Positions 1 to 20,910 of a stretch of DNA of 28,290 nt are shown piece by piece. The position numbers and the translations under genes were made by a program. This stretch comes from a virus (taxonomy: Duplodnaviria > Caudoviricetes). The stretch spans positions 1 to 28,290 of IMG/VR virus record IMGVR_UViG_3300037465_000360, one strand, 5' to 3'. Each line of letters opens with the position of its first letter. The stretch's first letter is position 1. The notes beneath the pieces were generated by a model. It searched no databases and was not told the DNA's origin. It was given only the letters and a program-made list of their open reading frames with translations.

Positions 1-301
1 CGTAGCCACCGCGACCACCACCACCGCCGCCGCCACCGTAGGAGGGGCGCTCGCCCTGTGGACGCGCTTCATTGGTGGTCAGATTGCGACCGCCGAATTC
101 TTTTTCGTGCAGAGCCTTGATGGCCTCAGTCATGGCAGTGGGAGTGTCCATGGTCACGAAGGCAAAGCCGCGCGGGCGGCCGCTGTCTCGGTCCATGGGC
201 AGATGCACGTCGGTGACGGTGCCGTAATCGGAGAAGAGGGCGCGGATCTCGGCCTCAGTGGCGCTGAAGGGCAGATTGCCCACATACATTTTGGTGTTCA
301 T
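1..301 (-). CDS. RRM-domain RNA-binding protein with Gly-rich tail (3' end beyond left edge)
   Basis: Manual translation from ATG at 301: [29 protein letters not shown]...[11 protein letters not shown]...[21 protein letters not shown]-2 (YVGNL) and RNP-1 (RGFAFVTM) motifs. Absent from the ORF track because it runs off the edge. Confidence 0.93.
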
Positions 302-493
302 TTCGATTTGTATTCCTCGGGGTTGTGTCAAACAACCGAACCATAAGGTAAGCTCCATAAGCGGATTTCAGAACACCAAAGGATTCAACCTGATGAACAA
401 TATGACTGACCTGGATCAGGCTGATGAACGCTTTGCCATCGCCTGGCAATCAGGTGCAAGGCAAGCGCGTGTTTGGAAAATCCCATTTCAACC

Positions 494-522
494 TTGCCGG
501 GCTGTGGGGAAATTCTTAGCAT
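494..522 (+). promoter_or_regulatory. Putative sigma70 promoter of cas9, probably giving a leaderless mRNA
   Basis: TTGCCG (494-499), 17-nt spacer, TAGCAT (517-522). ATG is at 530, 7 nt after the -10, with no Shine-Dalgarno. Confidence 0.45.
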
Positions 523-529
523 GTGACGC

Positions 530-3500
530 ATGAGCACGATTTGGGCGTTTGATTTGGGGAAAGGCAGCATCGGCGAAGCCGTGTGGGATGAGGCGCAAAA
601 TAAATTCCTGCACGTGGCCTCGCTGCTGATTCCGGCCGAATTCGCCTCCACCAGAGCCGCCGCCAGCCGCCGCCGCATGTGGCGCACCCGACAGGCGCAC
701 AAGGCGCGTGAGGCATGGCTGGATGAAGTGTGGAAAAAGGCGGGGCTGACACCGCTCATCGGTCGGCGCGTGGGGAAGGTGGATGGCGCGGGACAGTGGA
801 TTGAGCCAAAGGATTGGAAAAAGAAGAAAGGAACATGGAAGCTCAAGCACGAAGGCGATGAGAAGCTGGAGCGCGAGTTCGCGAAAGCCGGTGATCCGAC
901 GTGTTACACCTCCTGCCTCCTTCGCATCAAACTCCTGCGTGGTGAGAAACTGGAGGAATGGCAGATCTACAAGGCGCTGCACTCGGCAGTGCAGAAGAGA
1001 GGGTATGGGCGCGTGCCATGGGCGTCGCGTGATGTGGGACAGAAAAATCTCACAGAAGAAGAACTCGCCAAGGCTTTGAAAAAGCAGGATGACGAACTTG
1101 CGAAGAAAGACCCGACCTACAAAGCCGCTGTCGAAGCCTGGCCGAAGTTCAAACAAGAAGTGCCGGACAAGCAGTTTCATTACCCATGCTTCTATGATGC
1201 GCAGAAGATGGGTTTGTGGAATCCAGCGCAGCCAGATGAACTCAAGGAGCGCATTGACCATGACGCGACATCCACCCGGCGTGTCCGCTTTGATCGCGAG
1301 GATGTGAACCGCGAGATCGCTGAGCTGATGAGACAAGCGGCAAAGCAGAATGACAAACTGAAGCGCTCATTCGAGCAATGGAAAAAAACAGGCTGGAAGG
1401 CGGACGATCCCAAGCGCGGTGATGACGGCGTGTTTCCCGTTCATGCATCAGACATCGGCGAGTTTCTGGTTTATGGCCCGCCCGGAAAGCCAGATGAGCT
1501 GGCAGAAAAAGACTTTGGTGCTTATCTGAAGTTCCGCCAAGAGCGCAGCCTGCACCCTGGCAGCACGGATGACTGGATGGCCGCCACCGGCCAGAAAACT
1601 CCGCGCTTTGACAACCGCATCATCAATGACTGTGCCGTGTTTGAGGGAATGAAGGTCTGCAACGTCGCCATCCGCTACGACCAGAAAAACCAACGCATCT
1701 ACCCTGACTCGCTGCTCTACGCCGAGGTGACGTTCCTGATGAAGCTAAAGAACACACTCGTCGAGGACGTGAACGGCCAGCGCAAGCTCACCGTGGAGGA
1801 AATCAGGAAGATAATCGCCGTCGTTTCCAAAGAGGCACAAGCGGTGAAGCACGATCTCAAAAGATGGTCTGAGGCTGTGGCGAAACGTTACGCTCTCATT
1901 CAGCGTGATTGGGGGAATAAAAAGGGTATCAAAGAGATGAACCTGCGCCCGCTCAAAGGCCACGAAGAGGTGAAAGCACCCAAGACCGAGGGCCGCAGCC
2001 GCTACAGCCGACCAGCCTTGAAAGTGATCAAAGCTCTTTTGCTCAGCGGGCAGAAGCCGAGTTTGTTCTTGAAGCGTTTAGAGGACCGGGAGCCTTTGTT
2101 GTTGGACGAGATCGGCATGGATGTACACGATGCCGATCCGGTGAAAATCATTAACGGCAACAAGCAGAAGTGCGCCCTGCCACGTCCTTACATCCTCACG
2201 AAGCACTTGAAGTTCCTGCGCGATCTCGCGCAAACGAGCGACACCTGGGAGGGCATCTACATCCCCGAGCAGCGGCTCGACGCGCTGGAAGCACGGCACC
2301 GTGATGACGACGGCCAGGTGAACCGCCTCGCCGCCATCCAAGAATTGATCGGCAGCAACAACGATCCGATTGTGAGGCACCGGCTGTCCACGTTCGCCGA
2401 ACGGCTCATGGCGCTGGAGGAGGCGTACGGGGTGCCGTCAGAGATCGTGCTGGAGTTTGTGCGCACTGATTTCATGGGCGACGATGCGAAGCGCGACCTC
2501 GCGAAGTTTCAAAAAGATCGCGAGAAGGCGCGGCTCGAAGCCCGGAAGCTGGTACTGGACTACGGCTATCAGGACACCTTCGCTCCTCTTAAATACGAAC
2601 TGCTCAAGCAGCAGGGTGACGATTGCCTGTATTGCGGCAAGGCCATCAGCATGGATGAGCTGGATCAATGTGAGATCGATCACATCGTGCCGCGCAGCGA
2701 GCGTCATCGCGGGCCGGACGCGATGGTGAACTACGTTCTGGCCTGTCACGAGTGCAACCAGCTCAAGCGCGACCAGACACCTTATGAATATAAGCACGGC
2801 AAGCCCGGCTGGGACGCGTATGCGGAGCGGGTGAACAAGCACGCGGCAACACTGAGGAACAAAAAGATTCAACTGCTCCTGCGTGAGGACGCGCCATTGC
2901 TCGTGGACAAGTACACGGCGCTTGCGGAAACAGCATGGATTTCACGCCTCGCGAAGAAGCTCGCCTCGCTCCACTTCGGCTGGAAGAACGGCGTGGACGA
3001 AAAAGGCGTGCTCCGCGTCACCGTGGTATCCGGTGGCTTGACCGGACGCATCCGGCGCAAATACAAGCTCAATGGCATCCTCGATGTCAATGCAGTGACC
3101 GAGGAGGAGGCCGAAAAGAACCGCACTGACAAGCGCCATCACGCGCTGGATGCGATGATGATCGCCTTTCTGCCCGGATGGATGCGCGATGAGAAGAAAC
3201 AGAAGTTCTTCCGCTTTCCCGACCCCGTGGCCGCCAATCCGCGCGCCTTCTTCGATGCCGAGATCAAGCGCATCATGCCGGAGAACATGGCCGGGGAGAA
3301 AGCGGTGCTGGCTGAGACCATTTATGGTAGCAGACAGGATCAGCCCGGCATGGTGATCGTGCGGCGCGCCCTCGTTCGTGATCTGGCATACAAGCCTGCA
3401 ACGCAGCAGGGCAAGGTGGAGTTCGATTGCGATTACGCGCTCAAACAATTCAAAAGCATCCGCGACAAGGCGATCCGCGAGCGGTTGACAGCCTTCATGA

Positions 3501-3811
3501 ACAAGAAGACCACGGCAGCGCAATGGGATGAGTTCTGCAAGGAGTTCCGCGTCGTGCGTCCAGACGGGAGCGCGGGCGCGCGCATCCTCCGGGTGCGCAT
3601 GACCGTGGGCGCGGCGGATGAATATCGCGACATGTCAAAAGACCAGGGTGGCGCGTGGCGCAAGGCAAAGAAGGGACACAAGGGCCAGATCATTTTCATC
3701 GGAGAGGACGGCAAACCCGCTGTGCGTCCTGTCTATGTTTTCGAGTCCGAGGCAGCTGTGATGCGCGAACTGAAGCAAGCAGGTGCCAACGAAGGGGTTG
3801 AAATAGGATGA
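530..3811 (+). CDS. cas9: Type II (II-C-like) CRISPR endonuclease Cas9, probably C-terminally truncated
   Basis: RuvC-I WAFDLGKGSIG (D8), Arg-rich bridge helix RRRMWRTRQAHKAR, RuvC-II IVLEFVR (E642), HNH CLYCG...EIDHIVPRS...NYVLACHECNQLK (H718), RuvC-III KRHHALDA (~870). 1093 aa. Confidence 0.95.
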   Translation: MSTIWAFDLGKGSIGEAVWDEAQNKFLHVASLLIPAEFASTRAAASRRRMWRTRQAHKAREAWLDEVWKKAGLTPLIGRRVGKVDGAGQWIEPKDWKKKKGTWKLKHEGDEKLEREFAKAGDPTCYTSCLLRIKLLRGEKLEEWQIYKALHSAVQKRGYGRVPWASRDVGQKNLTEEELAKALKKQDDELAKKDPTYKAAVEAWPKFKQEVPDKQFHYPCFYDAQKMGLWNPAQPDELKERIDHDATSTRRVRFDREDVNREIAELMRQAAKQNDKLKRSFEQWKKTGWKADDPKRGDDGVFPVHASDIGEFLVYGPPGKPDELAEKDFGAYLKFRQERSLHPGSTDDWMAATGQKTPRFDNRIINDCAVFEGMKVCNVAIRYDQKNQRIYPDSLLYAEVTFLMKLKNTLVEDVNGQRKLTVEEIRKIIAVVSKEAQAVKHDLKRWSEAVAKRYALIQRDWGNKKGIKEMNLRPLKGHEEVKAPKTEGRSRYSRPALKVIKALLLSGQKPSLFLKRLEDREPLLLDEIGMDVHDADPVKIINGNKQKCALPRPYILTKHLKFLRDLAQTSDTWEGIYIPEQRLDALEARHRDDDGQVNRLAAIQELIGSNNDPIVRHRLSTFAERLMALEEAYGVPSEIVLEFVRTDFMGDDAKRDLAKFQKDREKARLEARKLVLDYGYQDTFAPLKYELLKQQGDDCLYCGKAISMDELDQCEIDHIVPRSERHRGPDAMVNYVLACHECNQLKRDQTPYEYKHGKPGWDAYAERVNKHAATLRNKKIQLLLREDAPLLVDKYTALAETAWISRLAKKLASLHFGWKNGVDEKGVLRVTVVSGGLTGRIRRKYKLNGILDVNAVTEEEAEKNRTDKRHHALDAMMIAFLPGWMRDEKKQKFFRFPDPVAANPRAFFDAEIKRIMPENMAGEKAVLAETIYGSRQDQPGMVIVRRALVRDLAYKPATQQGKVEFDCDYALKQFKSIRDKAIRERLTAFMNKKTTAAQWDEFCKEFRVVRPDGSAGARILRVRMTVGAADEYRDMSKDQGGAWRKAKKGHKGQIIFIGEDGKPAVRPVYVFESEAAVMRELKQAGANEGVEIG

Positions 3812-3871
3812 GACACCTAGCATTGGGTGGGGTTGGCTGGGTGCAAAATAGTGTGCGCGGTCAGAAAAGGG

Positions 3872-4324
3872 TCACTTTTGGTGGAGTTTGAGGGCGCGGT
3901 GGGCTGCCGAGAGCATCCGGCGGCGGGCGCTGGCTGATGGGCGCCCGTTGTCATCGAAAGGAAAGAATGGCCGCCCAGGGATGGTGTCTGTGCCGAGCTG
4001 CTGGTAGCCAGCGTAGGGGCGGTCTGAACCAACGGTGACGTTCTTGGAGCTGACTGAGACGATCCTGGGGCTGGCGGCTAGAGTGCCCTCGTTAATCAGC
4101 GGCTTCGAGCCGTAGCCAGCCCGGCGCTTTGAGGCCAGTGTGGCGTCACTCAAGGCAGCCCAGGCGGACGGTCTCAAGCTGGCATTGGTGAACGCGCGCT
4201 GAGCCATGCTCACGATGACAAGACCCATGGCCTCCAGCGCCTTGTGGGGGTTTGAGCAGGTGGCGAGGTGCTCCCGAAGGCTCGGCGTGAGCACGTCGCG
4301 GGTTTTGATGACTTCAATTTTCAT
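3872..4324 (-). CDS. Mu gpG-like phage virion morphogenesis protein
   Basis: WAALSDATLASK, LINEGTLAAS, VTVGSDRPYAGYQQLGT and IPGRPFFPF motifs typical of the family. Confidence 0.88.
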   Translation of the reverse strand: MKIEVIKTRDVLTPSLREHLATCSNPHKALEAMGLVIVSMAQRAFTNASLRPSAWAALSDATLASKRRAGYGSKPLINEGTLAASPRIVSVSSKNVTVGSDRPYAGYQQLGTDTIPGRPFFPFDDNGRPSASARRRMLSAAHRALKLHQK

Positions 4325-4553
4325 AAAGGGTCGCCCGCAGGGCTGACCCGGAGAAATTCAACGGCAGCGCCCGAAGGAAAGCAACACCGTTTTCGGCTGA
4401 AACCAGGCCGCCGGTCACAACCAGCGGAGAGGCGTCACTGACGAGCCTTTCAAGGCGCGGCGAGTCGCACAGCGCGCGGTTGCCTGGCCCAAGGCTCCAG
4501 GTTCCAAGCAGCTTCGGCTCGTCGCCTGTGTGTGAATGGAAGACGACTTTCAT
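4314..4553 (-). CDS. 79-aa hypothetical protein, candidate immunity/partner of the MuF C-terminal kinase
   Basis: Starts 2 nt after the MuF stop and overlaps the gpG start. This is the position immunity genes take in MuF toxin loci. Confidence 0.6.
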   Translation of the reverse strand: MKVVFHSHTGDEPKLLGTWSLGPGNRALCDSPRLERLVSDASPLVVTGGLVSAENGVAFLRALPLNFSGSALRATLYEN

Positions 4554-4555
4554 GG

Positions 4556-6316
4556 TTAATAGAACGGCTCCTCTTTGGTGACGCGCTTGGACTCTGGAAG
4601 ATGAGGATTGATCTCGGAGATGTCGAAGTCACCAAAGGTGCCTCGGGCTTTCAGTGCCCGTGCGCGCGCAAACATACCATCCACGGCCCCGTCAGACAAG
4701 AGAGGCTTCAGCGAGCGACGGACGCTTCGCTCCTCGCTGATGAAGCGCTCAATGCGGGCCATATTGAGAGGATCAATGGCACGGCCCTCCGCCGGGCCGG
4801 CGAAGCGCTTTCTTGTGATCGCCGGTGTGTCCGGCAGGCAATAGCCATTGTCGATCAGCGCGATCTCCACATCAGCACCAGCTCTCCTGGCGAGCCAGTT
4901 TCCATTATGTCGGTCGGTGTGCAGCAGCAGGTCGTCCAGGAGCTGCCAGTCATTGGCGAGCTGCGGAGGCATCCCCTTCCAGCCACGGGGACGCGCTCCG
5001 GTGGTGGTGCTGGTGGAGTGCAGGTCGCTGCGGTTGAAAAAGTCGGCTGCATCCTCGAATCCGCGCTGGAACAACTGCGCGGAACCCTCCTTGCCGCGCC
5101 ATTCGAGCCGGGCGGTGGGCGGCACCAAGCCGAGGTTGAGAGCCTCGTCAATTTTGCTGGCGGCGATCTCGCGCTTCCATTGCGTTCCTGGCACGACGCC
5201 GCGTCGAAGCTGGCGCTTCTCCTCGCCAGCCGCCGACTTGAAAACAACCTCGACACCGTTCTTGACGCGGCGCGTATCATTGACACCTCCGCCGAGCACT
5301 TTCTCGGACTTGAATGCGCCGTTTTCAATCGCGGCCCACTTCGCCGGCGTGGTGCTGGCCTGCCTCTCCGTCCATAAAAAGGTGAGCTCCGGTGTGAGCA
5401 GCGGCGCTGGCTGGTTTGGGAGCGGGAAAGAGCCTTGATTCAAGGCTTTGCCGTTCAGCCAGTCCCAGATGCTGGCTGTCTCACCCGCGCCGATCTCTTG
5501 CTTACGTGCCCAGGATTCAAATTCATTCCAGCTCTGCTGGCGCTCGGGGCTGTCCTGGTAGCGGGCGCGCAGGCCGTTGGCGTCGAGCCGCAGCGAGCCG
5601 GGATCAAAGAAAAAGCCATCTTCCCTGCCCTTCTCGATGGGCGCGCGGACATCGAAGTTTGCGCTCGGGCCGCGCGAGATGCGGCCATTGTTTTCCAGGT
5701 TCGCCCTGGCCGGGCCTTCGAGCACATTGCGTTTCTCGGGCGGCAGGTTTTTTTCCTGGTGGATCAGATCCTCCACGTCCTCCGGCAGCAGCGCGACCTT
5801 GCGGCATCGGCAGCCCCAGTCCCAGGGCGGCGTGTGGGTTTTCCAAAACGGTGAATCCGCCGGCAGCACGACGTTGTGCAGCGCGGCGTGCGTGGGTCTG
5901 ACCTTCTCATCGTCGAGGCTGAGGTACTGCCAGAAGGGGAACACATCGGCCTGACGCTCCAGCACTTGATGATTCGCGTTCGCGTAGGCTTGAAAGCCAT
6001 GCGTGCGCAGGATGAGCTGAGCGCGGGCGAGCGCGCCCTTATCATCGTCGTGCGAAACAAAGGGGCCGATGGAGGCGGCGATCTGTTTTTTCGCCTGCCT
6101 CCAGTCCGCGCCCTCGGGCACCTGGGCGACCAGCTCCCTGACATCGGCCAGGATGTTCATGTTTTCGATGCCGGTGATGGTGAAGGCGCGCGCGCGCAAT
6201 TCCGGGAGCAGGCCGTCAAAGACCTGCTTGGCGACCAGCGGCTTGCCGCGCAGCCACTCCGCCGCCTCGGTGTGAGGCGTGGGTTCAAGGAGAAAGTTTT
6301 TGGGAGGTTTTTTCAC
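4556..6316 (-). CDS. MuF (gpF) head morphogenesis protein fused to a C-terminal PI3/PI4-kinase/HipA-like domain
   Basis: N-terminal MuF motif VRPTHAALHNVVLPADSPFWKTHTPPWDWGCRCRKV. C-terminal LGGGVN, VFKS, REIAAS, LVPPT, GSAQLF, DRHNGNWL and LIDNGYCLP kinase-fold motifs. Confidence 0.88.
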   Translation of the reverse strand: MKKPPKNFLLEPTPHTEAAEWLRGKPLVAKQVFDGLLPELRARAFTITGIENMNILADVRELVAQVPEGADWRQAKKQIAASIGPFVSHDDDKGALARAQLILRTHGFQAYANANHQVLERQADVFPFWQYLSLDDEKVRPTHAALHNVVLPADSPFWKTHTPPWDWGCRCRKVALLPEDVEDLIHQEKNLPPEKRNVLEGPARANLENNGRISRGPSANFDVRAPIEKGREDGFFFDPGSLRLDANGLRARYQDSPERQQSWNEFESWARKQEIGAGETASIWDWLNGKALNQGSFPLPNQPAPLLTPELTFLWTERQASTTPAKWAAIENGAFKSEKVLGGGVNDTRRVKNGVEVVFKSAAGEEKRQLRRGVVPGTQWKREIAASKIDEALNLGLVPPTARLEWRGKEGSAQLFQRGFEDAADFFNRSDLHSTSTTTGARPRGWKGMPPQLANDWQLLDDLLLHTDRHNGNWLARRAGADVEIALIDNGYCLPDTPAITRKRFAGPAEGRAIDPLNMARIERFISEERSVRRSLKPLLSDGAVDGMFARARALKARGTFGDFDISEINPHLPESKRVTKEEPFY

Positions 6317-6351
6317 TTTGATATACGACCATTGGTTGTGGAATCACCGTT

Positions 6352-6459
6352 CTAGTCATCAAAAAGCGTCCCCTGTGCGACCTTCGCCGCGCAGGCTTTT
6401 GCGTAGATTGGGTTACGCTCGATGCCCACGGCACCAAATCCGCACAGCTTCGCGGCTGA
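6352..6459 (-). pseudogene. C-terminal remnant of an N6/N4 (beta-class) DNA methyltransferase
   Basis: Frame not in the ORF track reads SAAKLCGFGAVGIERNPIYAKACAAKVAQGTLFDD*, resembling the AAKxxGRxxxGIE...Y...QxxLF ending of phage MTases. No start codon or FxGxG motif upstream. Confidence 0.6.
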
Positions 6460-6790
6460 GGTGTTGCAGTAGCGGAGTCAGCAGTGATCCGGGAAGACGC
6501 TTTGCCCTGAGTGATTGGATGCCTTCGCGCAGCGCGGTGCCGATGCCGTGCTGGCAAAAGTAAAGCAGTGCATTGAATGCCTGATTCTGCGTGCTCGCGG
6601 CTAATGCGCCGCGAGCCAGGTCGGACAAGAAGGACTCCACCCTGCGCTCACTGTCCATGGCCGCTGCCTGTGCGTCGAGCTTCCTCAGCCAGGCGGCATA
6701 GCGGAGTACCCAGTGACGATAGCACTTGGCGGTCTTGTGGCTCTTATGCTGAAGCCTCAGCTTGTCGAGCATGGCGTCGAGCGCTCTCAT
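6413..6790 (-). pseudogene. Truncated integron-integrase-like tyrosine recombinase (N-terminal SAM-like domain only)
   Basis: LRLQHKSHKTAKCYRHWVLRY...VESFLSDLA...AASTQNQAFNALLYF...RAKR matches IntI-type N-termini. No catalytic R-H-R-Y domain. Confidence 0.8.
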
Positions 6791-7281
6791 TCTGCGCCGT
6801 CCTCCTTGATCATCTCTTCCCGTTCAATGAGGCTGCCGATGCCGCAGCGGGTGGCGTTCCAGAGGTCTTTGCGCTCGGGTGTCCACCAGCTTTTCTTCCC
6901 GGGCTGTCGGCGGGTGCGGTGCAGGTGTTTCAGGACGCTGATGAGATCCACCAGCAGCGTGCGAGGGCCGAACTCGCTGCTCTTCACGAAGCCGGTGCTC
7001 AGGAGGCGATAGAAGACGCTGGTGGACACGCCGAGGCCGAGGCGCGCGGCCAGATCCTCCGTCATGCGCACATGCTGCGCCCAAACGCAAGGGGTGAGCT
7101 GGTAGGTGCCCGTGGCCGGGTTCTTGACAAGCGCCATCGTGGCGTATTGCGGGATGGTGTCCGGAACTTTGACACGGACGCGGGCGCCGGGGTAAAGCTC
7201 GACCTCGATCTCTTGATTGACCGGGGCGCACCAGGCTTCATCTGGCGGCTGGGTGGTGGTGGATTCATCGCGTAGGCTCAT
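6787..7281 (-). CDS. Hypothetical protein with a possible excisionase/MerR-like HTH
   Basis: Likely start MSLRDES at 7281. EDLAARLGLGVSTSVFYRLLSTGFVKS..FGPRTLLVDL resembles a Xis-like winged helix. ATGA overlap with the integrase remnant. Confidence 0.55.
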   Translation of the reverse strand: MSLRDESTTTQPPDEAWCAPVNQEIEVELYPGARVRVKVPDTIPQYATMALVKNPATGTYQLTPCVWAQHVRMTEDLAARLGLGVSTSVFYRLLSTGFVKSSEFGPRTLLVDLISVLKHLHRTRRQPGKKSWWTPERKDLWNATRCGIGSLIEREEMIKEDGAE

Positions 7282-7294
7282 GGGCGGGGATGTT

Positions 7295-7609
7295 TTACAG
7301 GGAAAAAGCGAGCTGGGGATCGGCGAGGTCGCGCACACGGGCGTGGTGGAATGCCTCCACCTCCGCCATGGAGCGGGCGCGGTAGATGCCTTCGTGGCCC
7401 TCGCCGCCGATCAGCTCGACAAAGCCGAGGTCGAGCAGCTCCGTGGTGCGCGGGCGCAAGGTGAGGAGGCTGAGGCCGGAGCGATCCGCGATCTGCTTGG
7501 TGGTGCCGGGGCCGTAGTCAAGGAATGCCTGATAGACCTGGATGCGCAGGCCGGAGAGGCGTGACTTCAGATCGCTGAAGGTGGCGTTGCGGTAATCAAT
7601 CGGTACCAT
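7295..7609 (-). CDS. Winged-helix DNA-binding protein
   Basis: GPGTTKQIADRSGLSLLTLRPRTTELLDLGFVE wHTH pattern. Confidence 0.7.
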   Translation of the reverse strand: MVPIDYRNATFSDLKSRLSGLRIQVYQAFLDYGPGTTKQIADRSGLSLLTLRPRTTELLDLGFVELIGGEGHEGIYRARSMAEVEAFHHARVRDLADPQLAFSL

Positions 7610-7632
7610 GGGTTTGAGAGTTCAGGGTTCAG
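7610..7632 (-). repeat. Heptamer tandem array (CTGAACC/CTGAACT-like)
   Basis: Minus strand CTGAACC CTGAACT CTCAAAC CC fills the whole intergenic gap. Confidence 0.7.
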
Positions 7633-8211
7633 TTAGTCTTGGGTGCGGCGCTGGCTTTTGTTCCGGTTGGCGGCGTTGCCTTTGCCGTGCTTGGCGTTGC
7701 CGCGATTGCGGATGGTGTAGAAGACCTTCCAGACCTCTTTGGTGTGCAGGCTGGCGAGGGGGCGCTTGAACACGGCGCGGGCGATGGTCTCGGCGTAGCC
7801 GGGCTGGAGACCCTGGGCCAGCAGCTCGGTGCTGAGCTTTTGGTGAGCGATGCGCAGACCCTCTGTTTCGCTTTTCATAGCGCTGTCAAAGGCGCGGGCG
7901 CTCTCACCAAAAATGACGAGGAAGCGTGCCTGGATGGCCTTGTAATCGCCGTTGCCGGCGGCGCTGATGCGTTTCCCGCACGCCTCCACCGCCACACGGT
8001 GGCGGAAGTCTTCCAAAGACTCGCCCGCGAGCTGATCACGCCGCCCCAGGTGCAGCCAGGCTTCCTCGGCAAGATTGGAGAGCTGCCACTTTTGGCGGCG
8101 ACTGAGCGGGGCGCTGGTGCCGGGATACGGGGCGGGGCTGCGAACGGGAGCGTCCGTGCTCCTGTCCGGGCGTGGCGCACTGGCTGCGGGCTGGAGGATG
8201 TAGGTGCGCAT
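7633..8211 (-). CDS. GemA/gp16-like Mu early protein
   Basis: Likely start MRTYILQ at 8211. EDFRHRVAVEACGKRIS and YAETIARAVFKRPLASL resemble GemA/DUF1018; position in the Mu semi-essential region fits. Confidence 0.5.
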   Translation of the reverse strand: MRTYILQPAASAPRPDRSTDAPVRSPAPYPGTSAPLSRRQKWQLSNLAEEAWLHLGRRDQLAGESLEDFRHRVAVEACGKRISAAGNGDYKAIQARFLVIFGESARAFDSAMKSETEGLRIAHQKLSTELLAQGLQPGYAETIARAVFKRPLASLHTKEVWKVFYTIRNRGNAKHGKGNAANRNKSQRRTQD

Positions 8212-8956: not shown

Positions 8957-9550
8957 TCAGGCGCTGACCTGCGCGGTTTTGGCGATATCGGCCCCGGCTT
9001 TGAGGTCAAGTTCGATGGTGAAGCTCTCATCTTTTTGGATGGCGAGGCCCATCTCGGTGAAGGTCTCGCGATGATCGGGGAAGGCGGCCTTGATGGCGTC
9101 CTTATCGAGGCTAGGCTTCCAATTCAGGCACTTGTCAGAGAGCGCCTCGTCCTCGTGCTCGATCAGGCGGTCAATCACCGTCGCCTCGGTCACGCCCTTG
9201 ATGGTGGTGAGCTTGCCGGTGCCCTTGTGAAACTTCAGCGTATGGCCGGCGATGGTGACGCTCTGCTTGTCCTCCGGGAAGACCTGCGCGCGGTGCCGCT
9301 CGCAGTAGCTCTGGATGGCGTCCTCGCGCTCCTCTTTGATGGAGGCCATGGCGTCCAGCTTATCGGCGTAGCGTTCTTTCACGACTTGCAGTTCGGCGTT
9401 GAGTTCCTGAGTCAGCGCATTCAGTGCGATGGTGGCGCGCGCGGCGTCATTCAGGGCAATGGCGAGTTCGAGGTCATCTTTGATCAGGACGTGGAGTTTG
9501 GCTGCCTTCGCGGCGGCGATTTTGGCTTTGCGTTTGTCAGTGGTGCTCAT
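8957..9550 (-). CDS. gam: Mu Gam-like host-nuclease inhibitor (DNA end-binding)
   Basis: Coiled N-terminus, then IQSYCERHRAQVF..KQSVTIAGHTLKFHKG and SLDKDAIK...GLAIQKDESFTIE. Lies downstream of MuB. Confidence 0.85.
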   Translation of the reverse strand: MSTTDKRKAKIAAAKAAKLHVLIKDDLELAIALNDAARATIALNALTQELNAELQVVKERYADKLDAMASIKEEREDAIQSYCERHRAQVFPEDKQSVTIAGHTLKFHKGTGKLTTIKGVTEATVIDRLIEHEDEALSDKCLNWKPSLDKDAIKAAFPDHRETFTEMGLAIQKDESFTIELDLKAGADIAKTAQVSA

Positions 9551-9852: not shown

Positions 9853-10863
9853 TCAGGCGGCGATCTGCGGTTTGCGGTCGCGCCATTCGGCGTCGGTGGA
9901 CTTGGTGATGAGGTCGAGCGTTACGGTTTTGCGGCTTTGCTCGATGCGCGTGATGACCTCGCGGACGAACGCGAGATTGCCGCGCTCGCGCGCCTTGGCG
10001 GTAATGAGTCGCGCGGCCTCCTCGCTGTCGCCATTCAGGGCGGGCAGTTGTTTTTGGAGAAGGAAAAGAACATCGCCCTCCGTTGGCTTCGCGAGCCGAA
10101 TCCGCGCCAGGAGGCGGTTCTCCATGAGTTGGGAGAGATCGTCGTAGTTCTCGCGCTCCAGGGTGCGGAAGAGCTGCGGATGCGCCAGCAAGACGAACTC
10201 GGCGCTCGTCTCATTGATAAGCGTTTTAACCGCGCGCAGGCACATCGGGCCGAAGTCATGCGTCTCGTCGAGGATGCAGCAGCGGCGCGCCTGGCGCAGA
10301 ATCTTGATCACGCGTTCCATCTTAGTGAACTGGCTGCGGCTGGTGTCCAGCTCGCCTAGTGATTCGAGTATTTTCGAGAAGAGGGCGCTCGGGCGGTCCT
10401 TCCAGCCGACCGTGCCCTCGATGCGCACCACACGGCGCGGGGTGGGATTGCTGGAGTAGATGCGCTCGACGACTTTCGCCGCGCAAGTTTTGCCCGTGGC
10501 GCTTTCGCCCTCGATGACGAGGAGGCGCGCGGCGGACTTGCTGAGCACGAGACGTGTGATCTGCTTGCGCACGCGCATGGTCGCGGGGAAGTCCTCATAA
10601 AGAGTCTCGGTTTCCTGCTCGCCGGAGAAGATGAGGTGATAGACCGCGCGGTAGTTCACGAGGTGCCGACCCACGTCCAGCTCCTCGGTGTGGCCGTCGA
10701 GGATGGACTTGAACGTCTTATCACTCCCGAGGCCGTCCTTGGCGTGACGCCGCATCAGCTCGGCCGTGCTGATTTCGTTGCTCTCTGCATACTCGCGGAT
10801 CATCGTGGCCAGGGAGTGAAGCTCCTCGGCGGGATTGGTGGTGGTGGGTGCTTGGGTGCTCAT
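9853..10863 (-). CDS. MuB-like AAA+ transposition ATPase
   Basis: Likely start MSTQAPT at 10863. Walker A GESATGKT, Walker B CILDETH, C-terminal GNLAFV. Confidence 0.9.
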   Translation of the reverse strand: MSTQAPTTTNPAEELHSLATMIREYAESNEISTAELMRRHAKDGLGSDKTFKSILDGHTEELDVGRHLVNYRAVYHLIFSGEQETETLYEDFPATMRVRKQITRLVLSKSAARLLVIEGESATGKTCAAKVVERIYSSNPTPRRVVRIEGTVGWKDRPSALFSKILESLGELDTSRSQFTKMERVIKILRQARRCCILDETHDFGPMCLRAVKTLINETSAEFVLLAHPQLFRTLERENYDDLSQLMENRLLARIRLAKPTEGDVLFLLQKQLPALNGDSEEAARLITAKARERGNLAFVREVITRIEQSRKTVTLDLITKSTDAEWRDRKPQIAA

Positions 10864-10906
10864 GGGGGTTGGGTTCAATGTTCTGGGTTCGGGGTTCGGG
10901 GATTCA
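10864..10906 (-). repeat. Heptamer tandem array upstream of MuB
   Basis: Minus strand TGAATCC CCGAACC CCGAACC CAGAACA TTGAACC, starting at the upstream stop codon. Confidence 0.7.
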
Positions 10907-11155
10907 GCCGTGGATGGTTTCGACCGGCGCTTGATTGGCCTCGTCGCCGATGAGCTGGATGGCGCGCAGTTGCGAGGCGCTGGCTTGGGCGAGGGCGGAG
11001 AGCGCCCGGCCCACCTCCTCGGGGCGGACTTGGACGATGGTGGCGCCATCGCCGTGCTGGTTCAACCACACGTCGAGGCCGCCGACTTCGCTGGCCTCGG
11101 TGTAAAGGATGTTGGTGCTTTCGACAAAGATGTCATTGGTCAATCGTATGATCAT
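10904..11155 (-). CDS. Hypothetical phage protein (83 aa)
   Basis: Co-oriented ORF between MuA and MuB with plausible composition. Confidence 0.6.
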   Translation of the reverse strand: MIIRLTNDIFVESTNILYTEASEVGGLDVWLNQHGDGATIVQVRPEEVGRALSALAQASASQLRAIQLIGDEANQAPVETIHG

Positions 11156-11591: not shown

Positions 11592-13415
11592 TCAGGCGTG
11601 GATCAGGCCGCCACGGGCGGCGCGTGATTCGAGGGCCAGCCAGTCGTCGTCGGCGTCGTCTGCTGGCGTGTTGATGTGGCGGGGGGATGGGATCTCGCGA
11701 TCAGCGGCGGGGAAGTCACGACCGGGGTCACTGCCCCCGGCTACAGCGCCACCGGCCACAGAGTTGCGCAGGGCGTTGCCGAGGCCGTCCGCCGCGAAGC
11801 TTTTCCGCGCGCCTCCGGGCACGATGGCGCGGAAGACGCGGCGCACCTGGGCGCGGTGGGCGCGCTGGCCCTCGCTGCCGCCCGCCTGGCCGCCGATCAC
11901 GACCTGGGCGACCTCGGGCATCCACTCCGCCACGCCGATGAACTGAGCGAAGCCGAAGCCCTCGCGGTTGCGCGCGCTGGTGTCCGCGTTGAAGACGTGG
12001 CAGCCGTCCTCCGCACGTGAAGGTGAAAACGCAATGAGCACCTCATGACCGTGCTCCAATAGCACATCGGGGAAGCGATTCGAGCCGCTGCACCGGAAGC
12101 GAAAGCTCACGGGCCAGTGTTTGACCTTCACCTCAATCGCGCCCTTCTTGATGCTAGCGCGCTGCTTGATCGCGCAGAAGCGCCAGCGCTCGCGCGCGGG
12201 GCATTCACGCTTCACCTGGGCGGCCCACAGATCACGAGGCACCAGGAATTTATTGCCATGACTCCGGCGCTGGTGCGCGGTGGCGTTGTAGAGATCGAGC
12301 GACGCCATCACGCTGGCCGCGCTCTCTTCGATGCTCCAGAATTTCCTCAGTGCGCCATCATCGCCGCGATGAGCGGCGAGCATGAGCTTCGTCGCCTGCT
12401 CAAATTGTCCGCGCGTGCGGCCAATGCTCAGCGCCTCGCCCGCGCGACCGTGCGCGCGGAGTCGCTGCGCAAAGTTGAACGCGCCTTCGATGTTCCCTTT
12501 TTGCCGTGACAAATGACAGACTTGAAGATGCACGATGTCTTCCAGGCTTCCCCAGCGTTTGCCCTCCTGGTCGATCTCGATGCCGTAAATAAAGTTGTTG
12601 TCCCAGCGACCGCGCTCAATGCGCCACACTAGCGGCAATCCATATTGATCGACGATGTCCGCGAAGTGATCCGCGATGTCCTCCGCGCGATACGCATCGC
12701 GGGCGCGGCCAATGTGGGAAAATCCCAGCCAGTAGTGGGAGAACACGTCCATCGTCTTCAGCGACTGGCGTCCGAGCTTCTCCTCGCCCGTGGCCGGGTC
12801 GGTGTAGCGGAAAGGCTCGTTCTCCGACTCGTCATCGGACTCAAAGATCGCGCCGGCGTAGAACGGGATCTTCTCGCCATCAATGATCATGAAATTCCCG
12901 CGTCGCTCCGTAACCTCATGGCTGAGGAAGGCGCGCGGGCCTTCAAACAGTGCGCGCACCTCGGGAGATACACGCGCGGCGCGCTTCAGCGATAGCGGCC
13001 ACTGCGGGCGCTGATGACGCGCCAGCGCGGCGCTCCAGCGCTCCTTGATGAAGGTGATGATCTCCGCGCGCGGCGGCGTGCCGGGGCGTTCGGTGCTGAT
13101 GATCTCCTCATCGCTGATCCATTCCTTCAGCGCGGCGGGGAGCGATCCTTCACGGATCAGCATCCAGTATTGGAGGCGCAGTTGCTCGTCAGGCGTGAGA
13201 GTGAGGATGGGCTTGCGACCGCGCTTGGCGGGTGCGCTCGGCGCGGTCACGGGTGCGGGCTCACGACTTGGAAAACTCGCGCTACGATTCAGGAGGCGGT
13301 AAAACGTCGCGTGCGAGATGCCGACCTCCGCGCAGGCCCGGCGCGCCGGTGTCCCGGCGTTGACGAGTTGCTGCACACAGGCGAGCTGGAGGTGACGTTG
13401 GGCGGCGGTGATCAT
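11592..13415 (-). CDS. MuA-like DDE transposase
   Basis: N-terminal HTH (RRACAEVGISHATFYRL). RNase H-like core FESDD...MDVFSHYWLG...WRIERGRW...QKGNIEGAFN. C-terminal beta-rich region; upstream of MuB. Confidence 0.88.
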   Translation of the reverse strand: MITAAQRHLQLACVQQLVNAGTPARRACAEVGISHATFYRLLNRSASFPSREPAPVTAPSAPAKRGRKPILTLTPDEQLRLQYWMLIREGSLPAALKEWISDEEIISTERPGTPPRAEIITFIKERWSAALARHQRPQWPLSLKRAARVSPEVRALFEGPRAFLSHEVTERRGNFMIIDGEKIPFYAGAIFESDDESENEPFRYTDPATGEEKLGRQSLKTMDVFSHYWLGFSHIGRARDAYRAEDIADHFADIVDQYGLPLVWRIERGRWDNNFIYGIEIDQEGKRWGSLEDIVHLQVCHLSRQKGNIEGAFNFAQRLRAHGRAGEALSIGRTRGQFEQATKLMLAAHRGDDGALRKFWSIEESAASVMASLDLYNATAHQRRSHGNKFLVPRDLWAAQVKRECPARERWRFCAIKQRASIKKGAIEVKVKHWPVSFRFRCSGSNRFPDVLLEHGHEVLIAFSPSRAEDGCHVFNADTSARNREGFGFAQFIGVAEWMPEVAQVVIGGQAGGSEGQRAHRAQVRRVFRAIVPGGARKSFAADGLGNALRNSVAGGAVAGGSDPGRDFPAADREIPSPRHINTPADDADDDWLALESRAARGGLIHA

Positions 13416-15328: not shown

Positions 15329-16273
15329 ATGTCAACCAATGAGACTTTTGGTGATAAAGTGTTGAGTTTCCGACGCAGATCGGGACTCACTCAGGCAGAA
15401 TTTGCTCCACAGCTTGGCATATCGCGAAATTATCTATCAATGATTGAGAGCGGGCGGGAGCCTTCGGAATCACTGGTGACGCTGTTCAACCTGATCGCCG
15501 AGAAGCACGAAAACGAGACGGCGCGCCGTGCCGGCGCACCACCCTCCGCATTCAGTGCGGAGGGTTCCGAAAACAGGCTCACTGAGGAACCAACCCTCTA
15601 CGGCGCGCGGTTTTTTTTGAAGGCGGCGCGGGAGAAGGCGGGTCTCAGCCTCGCAGATCTGGCGAAGCGTGTCGGTTACAGCGTCGCGACGTATCGCGAG
15701 ATCGAGGACGGTCGCGCGCAAATGGGCGAGAAGATGGCGCGCAAGATCGCCGCTGTGCTCGATGTGGAGGCCGCCGATCTGATGAATGGCGGGGATCATC
15801 CACCGGAGAATGGCGCGCTGCGCGGCACGTTTGGCGCGGAGCCGTCCGTGGCGATGGGGCCGGGCATGGAGGGGCACAAGGCGAAGTTTGTCCCGCTGCT
15901 GTCCATGGCCCAGGCGGGGACGAATGCCGCCTGGACCACGGAAGGCTATGCGCGGGAGGGATTCCTCTCATTTGATCCGAAGGATCGCGATGCCTTCGCC
16001 GTGACGCTGGCCGGTGATAGCATGTCACCCATTTACACACCGGGCGATGTGGCGCTGGTGTATCCGAACCACGCGCCACGCAATGGCGATCTGGTGATCG
16101 CCGTGCTGGATGACGATCACGGCGCGGATGTGATGTTCAAGATTTATTCCCCGAGTGGACAGCGCGTGACACTCAGCAGTTACAATCCCGCGTATCCGCC
16201 GATGGAGTTCCCGCGCAGCGCGTTCAGGAGCTTGTTTCCAGTCGTGGCGGTGACGAAAGTGTTGAGGAGGTAG
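15329..16273 (+). CDS. CI-like repressor with two tandem XRE HTH domains and an S24 peptidase domain
   Basis: HTH1 RRRSGLTQAEFAPQLGISRNYLSMIESG; HTH2 REKAGLSLADLAKRVGYSVATYREIEDG; VPLLSMAQAG (Ala-Gly site), GDSM (Ser), MFKIY (Lys), LSSYNPAYPP. Confidence 0.92.
   Translation: MSTNETFGDKVLSFRRRSGLTQAEFAPQLGISRNYLSMIESGREPSESLVTLFNLIAEKHENETARRAGAPPSAFSAEGSENRLTEEPTLYGARFFLKAAREKAGLSLADLAKRVGYSVATYREIEDGRAQMGEKMARKIAAVLDVEAADLMNGGDHPPENGALRGTFGAEPSVAMGPGMEGHKAKFVPLLSMAQAGTNAAWTTEGYAREGFLSFDPKDRDAFAVTLAGDSMSPIYTPGDVALVYPNHAPRNGDLVIAVLDDDHGADVMFKIYSPSGQRVTLSSYNPAYPPMEFPRSAFRSLFPVVAVTKVLRR
15541..15566. repeat. 26-bp palindromic site, copy 2 (inside the repressor gene)
   Basis: Identical to 14371-14396, 1170 bp away; encodes part of the inter-HTH linker. 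Confidence 0.95.
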
Positions 16274-17156: not shown

Positions 17157-17246
17157 TCTGATCGCAGGCGGGAAGGCCCGTTTCAACCACGCGGGGCGTG
17201 TCCCTTCTGTTTGCCTTTCAAGGCTTCGAGCGGGAAAGATGCGCGC

Positions 17247-18353
17247 ATGTCGATGCGCCTGCTCGCCGCCCTGTCCCGCCCCGCCTCCGCCGCTGTGGAG
17301 CTGGTCGCTTTCAGCGGCGCGCGGCTGAAGCTTGATGCCAATGGCGAACTGCCGCGCGAGATCACCGTCGCCCCGTGGGGTCGGCGTGAGACACGCAAGG
17401 GCGCGGTCGTGGTGGATGACTTTTCCGCCGCACAAGTGCCGCTCAACCAGGCCGCGCAACGGTTTGACACCGTGGCGCTGGATTTCAACCACAACACTGT
17501 GCCCGGCCACGCTAGCTACATGGCGGAGAAAGAGCCTCGATTGATCGCCGCCAACGCCAAAGTCCGTGTGCAGCCCGGCAAGGGCATCGTCTTCGAAATC
17601 ATCAATTTCACGCCGGAAGGCGAGGCCGCGCTCAAGGGCGGGCACTTCATTGATCTCTCACCGACCGTGGTGAGAGATGCGCAGGGCCGCGTGATCTTCG
17701 TCCACTCCGCCGCGCTGTGCCGCCAGGGCGAGATCGCCGATGACTCCCTGACTCTGATCCCGCATGACGCGGACAGCAAGCTGGCCGGCGTCATGACCGC
17801 ACTGGCTGCGGAGGCACCCATCACCAGCTCGAAACCCGAAAAACACCTGACAATCATGAAAAACGCCCTCGTGAAACTCCTCGCCGCCTTAGGTGTCACC
17901 CTCGCCGATGACGCCGATGAAGCCGCCATCGCCACCGCCCTGGAAGCCGCCGCCGCGAAGGCAGAGGAGCTTGCGAAGAGGCCGGAGGCGATGAATGCCG
18001 ATTACACCGCGCTGAGCGCGGAGGTCAAGATGCTGCGCGAGCAGATCAGCACGTTCAATGCGGCGGAGGAGCAGCGCCAAAAGGACGCGCTTGTCGCCAC
18101 CGCCAGCCGCGAGGGCAAAGTGATCCCGCTCTCCGCCGAGACCATCAAGGTCACGCCCTTCAGCGTGCTGGAAGAGATGGTGAAGCAGCTCAAGCCCGGC
18201 GCGGTGCCGCTGAGCCGCAGCACCACGGACAAAGACGCCACCGGCAAGGTGGAAGTCTTCAGCGCCGAGGACAAGGCCGTCTTCGCCGCCATGGGGCTGT
18301 CGGAAGACGACTACCGCCAGTATGTCCTGGACCAGAAGCCCGCGAAGGCGTGA
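17247..18353 (+). CDS. Mu gpI-like prohead protease, with a likely internal in-frame scaffold (gpZ) start at 17856
   Basis: APWG, ALDFNHNT, FTPEGEAALKGGHFIDLSP, HSAAL. Helical C-terminal half begins MKNALVKLLAALGV and ends AMGLSEDDY. Confidence 0.88.
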   Translation: MSMRLLAALSRPASAAVELVAFSGARLKLDANGELPREITVAPWGRRETRKGAVVVDDFSAAQVPLNQAAQRFDTVALDFNHNTVPGHASYMAEKEPRLIAANAKVRVQPGKGIVFEIINFTPEGEAALKGGHFIDLSPTVVRDAQGRVIFVHSAALCRQGEIADDSLTLIPHDADSKLAGVMTALAAEAPITSSKPEKHLTIMKNALVKLLAALGVTLADDADEAAIATALEAAAAKAEELAKRPEAMNADYTALSAEVKMLREQISTFNAAEEQRQKDALVATASREGKVIPLSAETIKVTPFSVLEEMVKQLKPGAVPLSRSTTDKDATGKVEVFSAEDKAVFAAMGLSEDDYRQYVLDQKPAKA

Positions 18354-18380
18354 ACCCTGAACGCTGAACCCTGAACGCTG
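18351..18380 (+). repeat. Heptamer tandem array
   Basis: TGAACCC TGAACGC TGAACCC TGAACGC, beginning at the gpI stop codon. Confidence 0.8.
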
Positions 18381-18415
18381 TATTTCCCAACATCCGAACC
18401 CCGACCTAACTCACC

Positions 18416-19183
18416 ATGTCCGCCGCCACCGTCTCCCAACCCATCGCCCGCCGCGATGGCATGAACTATGACTTCGCCCTGAAGGCCGCCGCTGTGAAGC
18501 TCCTCAAAGGAGTGCTCGCCGCGCGGAACTCCAGCGGCTACATCACCAACGCGAGCGATGCCGCCGGCCTGATGGTCGTGGGCGTCCACCGCGAGGAGGT
18601 GGACAACTCCGCAGGCTCTGCGGGCGATCTCGATGCCAAGATCGAGACCGGCATCTTCCTTCTCAGCAACTCTGTCACAGGTCCGCTGACGGACGCGGAC
18701 ATCGGCAAGCGCTGCTTCGTCGAGGACAACCAGACCGTTGCCTCCAGTGGTGGCACGCATGGTGTCGTCGCCGGCATCGTCCGCAAGGTCGATGACTCGG
18801 GCGTCTGGGTGCAAGTCGGCAATTTGGACGCGAGCGTCCAGCCCTTCCGCCTGCCCACGCTCGTGGACGCCGATGGTGCCACGATCACCGCCGCGCTATC
18901 GGGTGGTGTCATCAGCAACGCCGGTGCCTCCGGTGCTGCCACGTTCGCTCTGCCGCCTGCCACGGCGGGTCTGACCTTCACCTTCGTGGTCCAGGCGGCG
19001 CAGGAACTGCGCATTGACCCGAACGCTACGGAGACCATCGCGCTGCCCTCCACCGGAGTGCAGGGCGCGGCGGGCAAATACCTCGTTGCCGACGCGATTG
19101 GCGAGAAGGTGCAGCTCGTGTGCCTCACCGCCGGGAAGTGGGACGTGATCCACTACTCCGGCATCTGGACGGCTGAAGCCTGA
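18416..19183 (+). CDS. Head decoration/cement-like protein with a C-terminal extension
   Basis: Lies between protease and major head. ADIGKRCFVEDNQTV...VAGIVRKVDDSGVWV, plus a second beta-rich domain (TFALPPATAGLTFTF). Confidence 0.6.
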   Translation: MSAATVSQPIARRDGMNYDFALKAAAVKLLKGVLAARNSSGYITNASDAAGLMVVGVHREEVDNSAGSAGDLDAKIETGIFLLSNSVTGPLTDADIGKRCFVEDNQTVASSGGTHGVVAGIVRKVDDSGVWVQVGNLDASVQPFRLPTLVDADGATITAALSGGVISNAGASGAATFALPPATAGLTFTFVVQAAQELRIDPNATETIALPSTGVQGAAGKYLVADAIGEKVQLVCLTAGKWDVIHYSGIWTAEA

Positions 19184-19239
19184 TCCGGCCTGCTGAATTG
19201 AAAAAAAAGAACTGAAATCTCACCCCACTCCTACCCGCC

Positions 19240-20193
19240 ATGGAAGTCACCGCCGCCAATCTCGCTGGAATCAACAAGTCATTCCAGACCAAGTTCAACC
19301 AGGCCCGCAATCTCGCGCCGGGCTTCTACAAGAAGCTGTGCATGGAGTGCCCCTCCGCCGCCGCTGAGAATGTCTATGGCTGGCTGGCGAGCCTGCCGCA
19401 GATCGGCAGGAAGACGGGCGAGTACATCAAGAAGCGCCTCCAGCTTCTGGGCTACCGCCTGACCAATGAGACGTGGGGCGGCATCATCGAGATCCAGCGC
19501 GAGTCGATCGAGGACGACACCTACGCCATGTTTGCCCCCACGGCCAGCCTGTTGGGCCAGCGCGCCGGTCAGGTGCCGGATCTGGAGCTGACCCAACTCC
19601 TGATCAATGCCTTCAGCTCCAGCAAGGGCAAGGACTACACGAACAGCGCCTTCTTCTCCGCCGCGAAGAAAGCCCACGGCAAGGCCACGGCGTTCACGAA
19701 CAGCGGGGTCAAGAAAATCTCCGCCGCGAACTTCGAGGCCGCGCTCGCGGGCCTTGTGGAGCGCGTGGATGCCGAGGGCGTGCCGCTCTACCTCGGCCAG
19801 GACAGCTCCATGCTCTACCTGGTCGTGTGCTCCGACGACCAGAGCACGGCGGAGGCCATCGTGAAGCTGCCGACTCTGAGCGGCGGCGGCGCGAACCCGA
19901 ACTACCAGAAGGCGCAGCTCATCGTGCTGCCCGGCCTGCAAAGCGCCGCGCAAGCCTCCAGCGTCATCAATGACGCGGATGCGCGCCCGTGGTTCCTGCT
20001 GGATTGCAGCCAGGCGGTGAAGCCCTTCATCTACCAGCCGCGCAGCAGCTTCGAGATCACGCCAAATTTCAGCCTCACCTCGGACGCCGTCTTCAATCAA
20101 GACGTGTTCCAGTGGAAGGCGCGCGGTCGCATGGCCCTCGGCTACGGCCTGCCCGAGTATGCCTACGGCAGCACCGGCGCGGAAGCGGCCTGA
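19240..20193 (+). CDS. Mu gpT-like major capsid protein
   Basis: ENVYGWLASLP, NETWGGIIEIQRESIEDD, PWFLLDCSQAVKPFIYQPR, GYGLPEYAYGSTG. Confidence 0.93.
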   Translation: MEVTAANLAGINKSFQTKFNQARNLAPGFYKKLCMECPSAAAENVYGWLASLPQIGRKTGEYIKKRLQLLGYRLTNETWGGIIEIQRESIEDDTYAMFAPTASLLGQRAGQVPDLELTQLLINAFSSSKGKDYTNSAFFSAAKKAHGKATAFTNSGVKKISAANFEAALAGLVERVDAEGVPLYLGQDSSMLYLVVCSDDQSTAEAIVKLPTLSGGGANPNYQKAQLIVLPGLQSAAQASSVINDADARPWFLLDCSQAVKPFIYQPRSSFEITPNFSLTSDAVFNQDVFQWKARGRMALGYGLPEYAYGSTGAEAA

Positions 20194-20231
20194 TCGCCTT
20201 GATCTGAAACCCTCCATCCATCCCCCGCCGC

Positions 20232-20672
20232 ATGGATCCTGCTGATCTCCCCCCCGTCCCGCCCAAGGCGGTGGCCGCGCCTGCTTCGCAGCCGGTCGCC
20301 CCTTCAGGCGGCACGGTGTTCCAGCCGATCACCGTCCCGCCGCACATGGCGGGCATGATCGGCGCGGTGGTGGCCGCGCCCCCGGCGGCCACGCGCAAAT
20401 CCAATCCCACCTTCGACCGCCCCGGCGATGCCCTGCGTCGCACGCGGGAGATCGGCGACCGCCTCCGCGCCGCCGCCGCCGACTTCACCAGCGCTTGCGA
20501 GACCTTCCTTTCAGCAGTAAAAGCCGCCGAGGCCCACGCCAAGGATGATCCGGTTGCCGCCTCTCTCTGGAAAGCCGAGGGACTGGACCTGAGCCAGGCC
20601 GCCGAGGTCGCCCGCGAGGCTGGCGAGGCGCTGGACCGTGTGAAACCCCCGCTCCCGCCCGCCGCCGCCTGA
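20232..20672 (+). CDS. Pro/Ala-rich hypothetical protein
   Basis: Co-oriented ORF after the capsid gene with GC3-rich codons. Confidence 0.6.
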   Translation: MDPADLPPVPPKAVAAPASQPVAPSGGTVFQPITVPPHMAGMIGAVVAAPPAATRKSNPTFDRPGDALRRTREIGDRLRAAAADFTSACETFLSAVKAAEAHAKDDPVAASLWKAEGLDLSQAAEVAREAGEALDRVKPPLPPAAA

Positions 20673-20711
20673 ACCAACACTTTGCAATCCGCTCATGGGT
20701 TGCGATGCCAC

Positions 20712-20747
20712 GGGAACGGCGGTGGGGGAAACTTCACCGTCGTTTTC
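20712..20747 (+). terminator. Strong RNA hairpin, possible terminator/attenuator after the head genes
   Basis: GGGAACGGCGGTGGGG-GAAA-CTTCACCGTCGTTTTC: 16-bp stem with five G-U pairs and a GNRA loop; the U-tract is weak. Confidence 0.55.
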
Positions 20748-20882: not shown

Positions 20883-20910
20883 CTGAACTCTGAAATCTGA
20901 ACTCTGAACC
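20883..20910 (+). repeat. Heptamer tandem array upstream of gp36
   Basis: CTGAACT CTGAAAT CTGAACT CTGAACC. Confidence 0.8.

Follow-up and report, generated by a model that had tools for sequence, protein, structure and literature searches.

Insertion of a Mu-like prophage into the 3' part of a host cas9 gene, probably by near-random transposition

Transposable phages of the Mu/B3 type reside as prophages inside host genes, which are unrelated among relatives, generate short target duplications and share a set of genes encoding MuA, MuB, Gam, a repressor and the proteins F, G, I and T, and in all these features they resemble the element described in this work. Their duplications measure 5 bp in Mu and 6 bp in B3 and their termini usually read TG...CA, with TA-TA ends described in Leptospira (as covered by the available text of PMC8705779), whereas the clade containing our element shows a duplication of 4 bp in each of its four mapped members and variable termini. 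No 4-bp duplication was found for Mu-type phages in the open-access literature. A split head module has been described for KS10 (in the accessible part of PMC2628397), although with a different order, since gpF-gpG are located at one end and the terminase and portal genes at the other in the elements described here.

Mobile DNA is also known to disrupt CRISPR-Cas loci. The available part of PMC10359306 lists 163 natural insertions of insertion sequence (IS) elements in cas genes, a parallel in which a DDE element inactivates immunity and which extends to two IS cases in the Cas9 clade investigated here; the present case differs in that a complete temperate phage has inserted, an invader of the type against which the system is directed, and in that a single sample contains both the intact and the broken allele. 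Integration of a prophage also neutralises a type II locus in the case of the Streptococcus pyogenes phage AP1.1, which, according to the accessible portion of the preprint (bioRxiv 10.1101/2020.10.09.333658), enters the repeats and uses AcrIIA23, whereas our element has entered the coding sequence of cas9 and employs a DDE transposase, with no site preference found. No earlier case of a transposable phage inside cas9 was found in the open-access literature. The interrupted protein itself resembles Cas9d of type II-D, a subtype defined in PMC12669027 and PMC9755519, the former describing an adaptation module composed of cas1-cas2-cas4 (both as far as their available text extends). It scores far above the cut-off of the Cas9d model NF049971 and has a predicted C-terminal PAM-interacting (PI) domain, as described for Cas9d in the accessible part of PMC11903963. 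Conversely, with about 1,150 aa in its intact form it is larger, and the locus of its relative L001 leaves no room for cas4 in front of the array, which is more like type II-C. We consider the assignment of the protein to type II-D as uncertain.

A cas9 gene with a shortened 3' end

The analysed stretch of DNA (termed the window, a virus record of 28,290 bases) contains host DNA at positions 1–3789, with genes coding for an RNA-binding (RRM) protein and Cas9, and a Mu-like prophage in the remainder. The RRM gene (2–301, minus strand; NF058537 with 88.6 bits, below the cut-off of 100) is found upstream of cas9 and thus identifies the left flank as chromosome, and in the sequencing run X1 the host unitig extends about 7.5 kb further to the left of the window. 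The named homologs of Cas9 and of the phage transposase include proteins from Prosthecobacter, and the host is presumably a member of the Verrucomicrobiaceae.

The cas9 reading frame (530–3811, plus strand) encodes 1093 residues, of which 1–1086 are derived from the host, whereas codon 1087 is chimeric and residues 1087–1093 (NEGVEIG) are read from phage DNA. The product contains a split RuvC and an HNH domain with their catalytic residues present (RuvC-I D8, RuvC-II E642, HNH D717, H718 and N743, and RuvC-III HHALDA at 870), which defines it as a type II Cas9 and agrees with an earlier note, made from the sequence alone, that all catalytic motifs are kept. The same note had described a stop 223 residues past RuvC-III at GANEGVEIG, a phage gpG gene converging on cas9 with 60 bp between the stop codons and the lack of cas1, cas2, a tracrRNA or an array past cas9. 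All of this holds: the residue count was reproduced when starting from H870, gpG is located at 3872–4324 on the minus strand, and within the window searches for cas1 and cas2 (best E-values 0.66–0.9), for the 36-nt CRISPR repeat (best 20–21 of 36 positions) and for Rfam families all remained without a match. In the loci of relatives, cas1 directly follows cas9 in 14 of 16 cases, at a distance of 13 nt past the stop codon in L001, where cas9-cas1-cas2, with a cas1 of the Nmeni type, are followed by about 250 bp and then the array. This conserved neighbourhood makes a displacement together with a polar effect on cas1-cas2 probable, and cas1, cas2 and the array would probably be found beyond the far end of the prophage.

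The extent of the truncation is evident from a comparison of the sequence that follows the RPVY anchor, which measures 28 residues in the window protein and 69–136 residues (median 96) in all 119 other homologs among the best 120 of 648 matches. None of these 119 proteins ends as early, which places the truncation beyond chance. Identity with the closest homolog P0002 (83%) ceases after residue 1086, and the 68 residues absent thereafter include a nearly invariant GxFQSxC block. The window protein matches NF049971 (Cas9d, NCBIfam) with 862 bits at a cut-off of 375, covering the model up to position 920 of 986, while the intact proteins P0002 and P0003 reach position 985, and it also scores above the cut-off of TIGR01865. 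Its C-terminal domain, predicted to be PAM-interacting, is in this way incomplete.

An AlphaFold2 model of P0002 calculated with 102 sequences (mean pLDDT 83.9, with 82–89 in the block 1051–1130) displays a C-terminal unit composed of strands 1026–1033 and 1039–1045, helix 1050–1059, strands 1063–1068, 1073–1076, 1090–1097 and 1102–1106 and helix 1118–1123, and a cut after residue 1062 of P0002 takes away the final helix and four of the six predicted strands. The alignment of the model with solved Cas9 structures runs from one terminus to the other (best Z-score 18.2, rmsd 8.0, 786 aligned residues), its last residue falling at position 1101 of St1Cas9 and 1032 of SaCas9, near their C-termini. 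We take these positions to be part of the respective PI domains. The lost part would thus comprise most of the PAM-interacting module, although sequence and profile searches did not tie the segment to a solved PI domain and a lead from the Atlas stayed under 0.9. In a small Cas9d, the modelled PI covers residues 670–743 and some PAM contacts reside in the WED (available text of PMC11903963). As judged from the model, the truncated protein has likely lost CRISPR interference; it may possibly persist as a stable guide-binding but PAM-defective protein, and misfolding is just as plausible.

The junction and an uninterrupted allele

Position 3789 is the last base of host sequence, and the phage starts with the letters CG at 3790. 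This junction was mapped by comparing contigs of four sequencing runs (X1–X4) over positions 3640–4400. All four runs, which hold parts of the stretch, are labelled as freshwater metagenomes, and most of the stretch is found in X1 only. Contigs in X1, X2 and X4 diverge from the window behind 3789, where their frame continues with K-V-A/V-G-M-F-Q-S-L, in agreement with KVAGLFQSL in P0002, and therefore correspond to an intact cas9. The empty insertion site thus exists in three runs, and this uninterrupted allele provides direct evidence for the claim that a Mu-like prophage has entered the 3' end of cas9 and, in combination with the tail lengths described above, for the claim that the insertion removed the C-terminal part of the protein. 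The earlier note had further placed the end of the phage at a TG at either 3799 or 3809. While both dinucleotides exist, neither marks the end, since the intact-allele contigs and the end register of relatives locate both inside the phage. The dinucleotide also occurs at 3784, 3824 and 3828, and an end at 3784 is ruled out by the identity of the host sequence with the intact allele, which reaches 3789.

In X1, the host unitig that ends at 3789 has a depth of 14.6, compared to 8.67 in a 73-nt junction unitig, on which thirty 31-mers cross the junction, and to a back-calculated depth of about 5.5 in the intact branch. The depths of both alleles sum to the host depth, and by these contig depths the prophage is present in about 60% of the population and the intact cas9 in 40%. 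The junction was observed in X1 only, which is probably the source run of the window, in a bridging unitig with 30 host letters, one below the applied 31-letter rule. The runs X2 and X4 contain the intact allele only, at a depth of 2–3, whereas X3 and low-depth pieces of X2 contain only related phage DNA. There is no repeat common to host and phage at the junction. The last four host bases CCAA (3786–3789, plus strand), where the host contig ends, constitute the predicted target duplication, with its length of 4 bp taken from all four relatives with two mapped ends, and we would expect CCAA followed by the remainder of cas9 beyond the far end of the prophage.

X1 contains a second phage end (depth 13–15) with another flank and a TG at the column of position 3790. 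This second phage has only the end region and gpG in common with the window (3796–4324, at about 95–97%), the similarity ending at the gpG start codon, which suggests recent recombination and perhaps a double lysogen.

Gene content, relatives and termini of the prophage

The first 27 nucleotides of the prophage (3790–3816, plus strand), which were placed in the same register as the end motif of relatives and the 10 nt that follow it, form the outer end site of the gpG-side terminus, and the cas9 stop codon (3809–3811) is located within this site. The remaining end region (3817–3874, minus strand) includes the motif TGACCCTTT, which overlaps with the gpG stop codon, is common to many relatives and is a candidate for an inner transposase site. 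It is followed by the gpG-like virion morphogenesis gene (PF05069, phrog_26), which natively is the last gene at this end, and by the gene for a gpF-like minor head protein whose C-terminal extension is kinase-like (4556–6316, minus strand; PF04233, phrog_220, with a weak match to PF00454 and TIGR03843 below cut-off). Also encoded on the minus strand are Gam (8957–9550), a MuB-like ATPase (9853–11049) and a MuA-like transposase with 102 homologs (11592–13415; for the three genes PF07352, PF13401 and phrog_491/296/310), whereas the plus strand contains a repressor (15329–16273; HTH_3 and Peptidase_S24, phrog_4) and, at 17211–28290, protease I, capsid protein T, gp36 and the tail module. The matches to phrog_310, phrog_296, PF07352, PF04233, PF05069, PF10123 and PF10124 identify the element as a Mu-like prophage. 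Terminase and portal genes are absent from the window because the contig stops before them and before the far end. In the related prophages G032 and G080, the far end contains the genes for lysis, terminase and portal, located past those for the tail, which rules out a defective prophage devoid of terminase and portal.

Several other features were observed in the prophage. The gpF gene contains a C-terminal extension of about 290 residues followed by a 79-aa reading frame (the region spanning 4314–6316, minus strand), and such extensions vary among relatives. We presume that the pair resembles polymorphic MuF toxin-immunity pairs. An N-terminal fragment of an integron-type integrase (6413–6790, minus strand) is contained inside the prophage on a continuous X1 unitig and has no tblastn match in related loci. 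Tandem heptamers of the type CTGAAC(T/C/G) are found between late genes (18340–18384, 20880–20910, 22018–22062 and 27310–27340), and a scan of the window for promoters and terminators gave matches at chance level only.

An alignment of 34 transposases led to 34 viral loci. In the closest of these (L008–L014 and L021) the genes are ordered A, B, ..., F, G, with gpG being last wherever the contig extends that far (L009/G032, L010, L012, L013, L014, L021 and others; L009 and G032 apparently represent one prophage, as do L014 and L047). More distant relatives (L017, L019, L022–L024, L026, L033, L036, L083 and L084) keep the classical F-G-I order, which makes the gpG-terminal layout a clade-specific rearrangement. 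Past gpG, relatives contain a conserved motif and then 10 nt to their end, and the same register gives an end at 3790 in the window. Of 17 candidate loci, 6 (representing 4 distinct sites) did not show this motif, and a further one lacked a flank.

Both ends could be mapped in four prophages, with G032 (L074/L075) and G080 (L077/L078) each on a single contig and G057 (L089/L081) and G074 (L087/L079) each on two contigs that we have paired. The target duplication measures 4 bp in all four, whereas 5 bp fits none of them at that register, and G074 would also fit 6 bp if both ends were moved in by one base. Their termini read CC...GG, CC...AG, GA...TC and TG...CA. At the gpG side, the ends of ten relatives are CT, CC, CA, CA, TA, GG, CA, TC, TA and AG, with CA in 3 of 10, and L123 ends with CG as observed in the window. 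The rule that these phages begin with TG, end with CA and duplicate 5 bp, which the earlier note had carried over from Mu, is consequently not supported in this clade, and a search for the far end as CA followed by TAGGA or GGGGT would fail for the wrong reason. Within each of these Mu-like elements of the Verrucomicrobiaceae, the first base is identical at both ends.

The far end of the window prophage was not found in searches with gpG, MuA or the end pattern: gpG and MuA, each used as a single-protein query against viral contigs, did not retrieve it, a 17-letter end pattern gave six matches that were all unrelated, and MuA remained unmatched among GenBank phages. Relatives of gpG occur in 9 of 145 Verrucomicrobiaceae genomes while a sample of 401 genomes from the order yielded no additional one; with 401 genomes searched at each of the levels of order and class, G435 was the sole addition, and its gpG precedes gpI.

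Random, targeted or selected insertion

We find it probable that the prophage has entered cas9 by ordinary, near-random transposition, an event that likely inactivated CRISPR interference in this lineage; the mechanism, the identity of the PI module and the loss of function are what we infer from the data described above. Transposition into 3789|3790 would have swapped about 68 C-terminal residues for seven phage-encoded ones, and the protein, with most of its predicted PAM-interacting module gone, would probably be unable to engage DNA targets. The length of the phage would now separate cas9 from cas1-cas2, the tracrRNA and the array. The lysogen lineage, coexisting with cells whose cas9 is intact, would have reached a share of about 60% in the sampled population, for which drift or a general selection for CRISPR loss, as with IS elements, may suffice in the absence of site-specific targeting. 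By a rough calculation (3.4 kb in 5.5 Mb, with 11% of hosts carrying the gene), random insertions into cas9 are expected at about 0.7 per 10,000, and one case in a large scan thus needs no targeting. The four mapped sites of relatives comprise an autotransporter-like, a pectate-lyase-like and a sulfatase-like gene and one unassigned stretch (labelled from reading translations), and these sites and the ten flanks all differ from each other.

A preference of the phage clade for cas9 or its 3' end, in the manner of AP1.1 and CRISPR repeats, appears to us extremely improbable. It would be suggested by the location itself and by the AP1.1 precedent, where another mechanism operates (available part of bioRxiv 10.1101/2020.10.09.333658), but cas9, cas1 and cas2 were found in none of ten gpG-side flanks of relatives (six of at least 500 nt, and four of 35–73 nt, a length at which a translated search is unreliable) and no cas gene is among the four fully mapped sites. 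Of the independent cas9 insertions in relatives that the earlier note had suggested looking for, none by this phage clade was hence encountered in this small sample, nor was recurrent integration into CRISPR-cas loci of the AP1.1 type. Moreover, the flank of the second phage end in X1 is unconnected to positions 1–8000 of the window, and the genomes G097 and G139 each contain a gpG match on one contig and a full-length cas9 frame on another. The cas9 of the window was not found on other viral contigs. Also very unlikely, though less so, is an event other than a clean insertion, either a deletion or rearrangement that originated at the phage end and eliminated the remaining cas locus, or an incorrect joining of the contig. 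The far end missing from the contig, the terminal CG in place of TG and a junction known from one run would fit this explanation; against it, the junction falls exactly at the end register of the clade, L123 carries the same CG, thirty 31-mers span the junction on its unitig, the allele depths sum to the host depth, and no repeat connects host and phage. On the far side, a deletion next to the phage may nevertheless have occurred. That the CG end reflects a unique damage locking the prophage in place is unlikely, as L123 ends alike.

Near-random transposition could also have been followed by strong filtering, in which a host spacer directed against this phage, or against a related co-occurring one, left lysogens with a destroyed cas9 as the sole survivors. 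We regard such a selected escape as rather unlikely, although the frequency of about 60% in X1 is high for a neutral one-off event and could mean selection, and although a second related phage end is found in the same run at a depth of about 13. The trapping of IS elements in cas genes has been shown (accessible part of PMC10359306), and independent IS breaks of cas9 are found in the genomes G126 and G003. The 243 spacers of the arrays of eight relatives gave a best match of 22 of 30 positions to the window, which equals the shuffled background and, with the hosts being distant, is weak evidence against this scenario; the spacers matching this phage that the earlier note had suggested looking for did accordingly not emerge among these relatives. 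A total of 262 spacers had been extracted, of which the 19 from L001 were left out of the full-length comparison owing to their poor delimitation, and 4 of 13 loci were devoid of a usable array. The best spacer match overall, at 25 of 30 positions, is to L026. The 96-repeat array L099 (G037) contains the best though weak matches (24–25 of 30) to the Mu-like loci L026, L052 and L016.

In the 145 genomes of the family, 16 matches to cas9 were found, of which 14 have frames of 1039–1349 aa and two are broken by IS elements of the IS5 and IS630 type, not by phage. In G126 (L065/L109, L120/L113), cas9 is cut 36 residues before its C-terminus by a multicopy IS5-type element with nine ends in the genome and a TA target, and the remainder of cas9 together with cas1 is found on another contig. 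In G003 (L063/L117), cas9 is interrupted by an IS630-type fragment near the position of P0002 residue 998 and has additionally lost an internal segment, and cas1 was not found with the query used. Together with the phage, these insertions reveal that cas9 genes of this Cas9 clade have been disrupted more than once and by unrelated elements, with each of the three insertions located within the last approximately 130 residues, an observation made post hoc with n = 3. More speculatively, and in our view still somewhat less likely than an escape as such, the phage may exercise a counter-defence that is free of anti-CRISPRs, with lysogeny in a host with a primed Cas9 established only where a random insertion kills cas9, and with the lineage caught here in the middle of a sweep next to intact cells. 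The PI-encoding 3' end would possibly be favoured as a site of breakage, with a guide-sequestering, PAM-blind protein as the product, in a phage clade with 4-bp duplications and no fixed TG...CA.

As a single and probably random event, the near-random insertion that we favour has modest general significance. For the Verrucomicrobiaceae clade of Mu-like phages, the 4-bp duplications and variable termini matter for the calling of prophage ends and for transposase biochemistry. The locus itself is a clean natural example of the physical knock-out of a host Cas9 by a phage, with both alleles present in the same sample. A single public run would suffice to test the standing question whether CRISPR self-targeting selects lysogens in which cas genes are disrupted.
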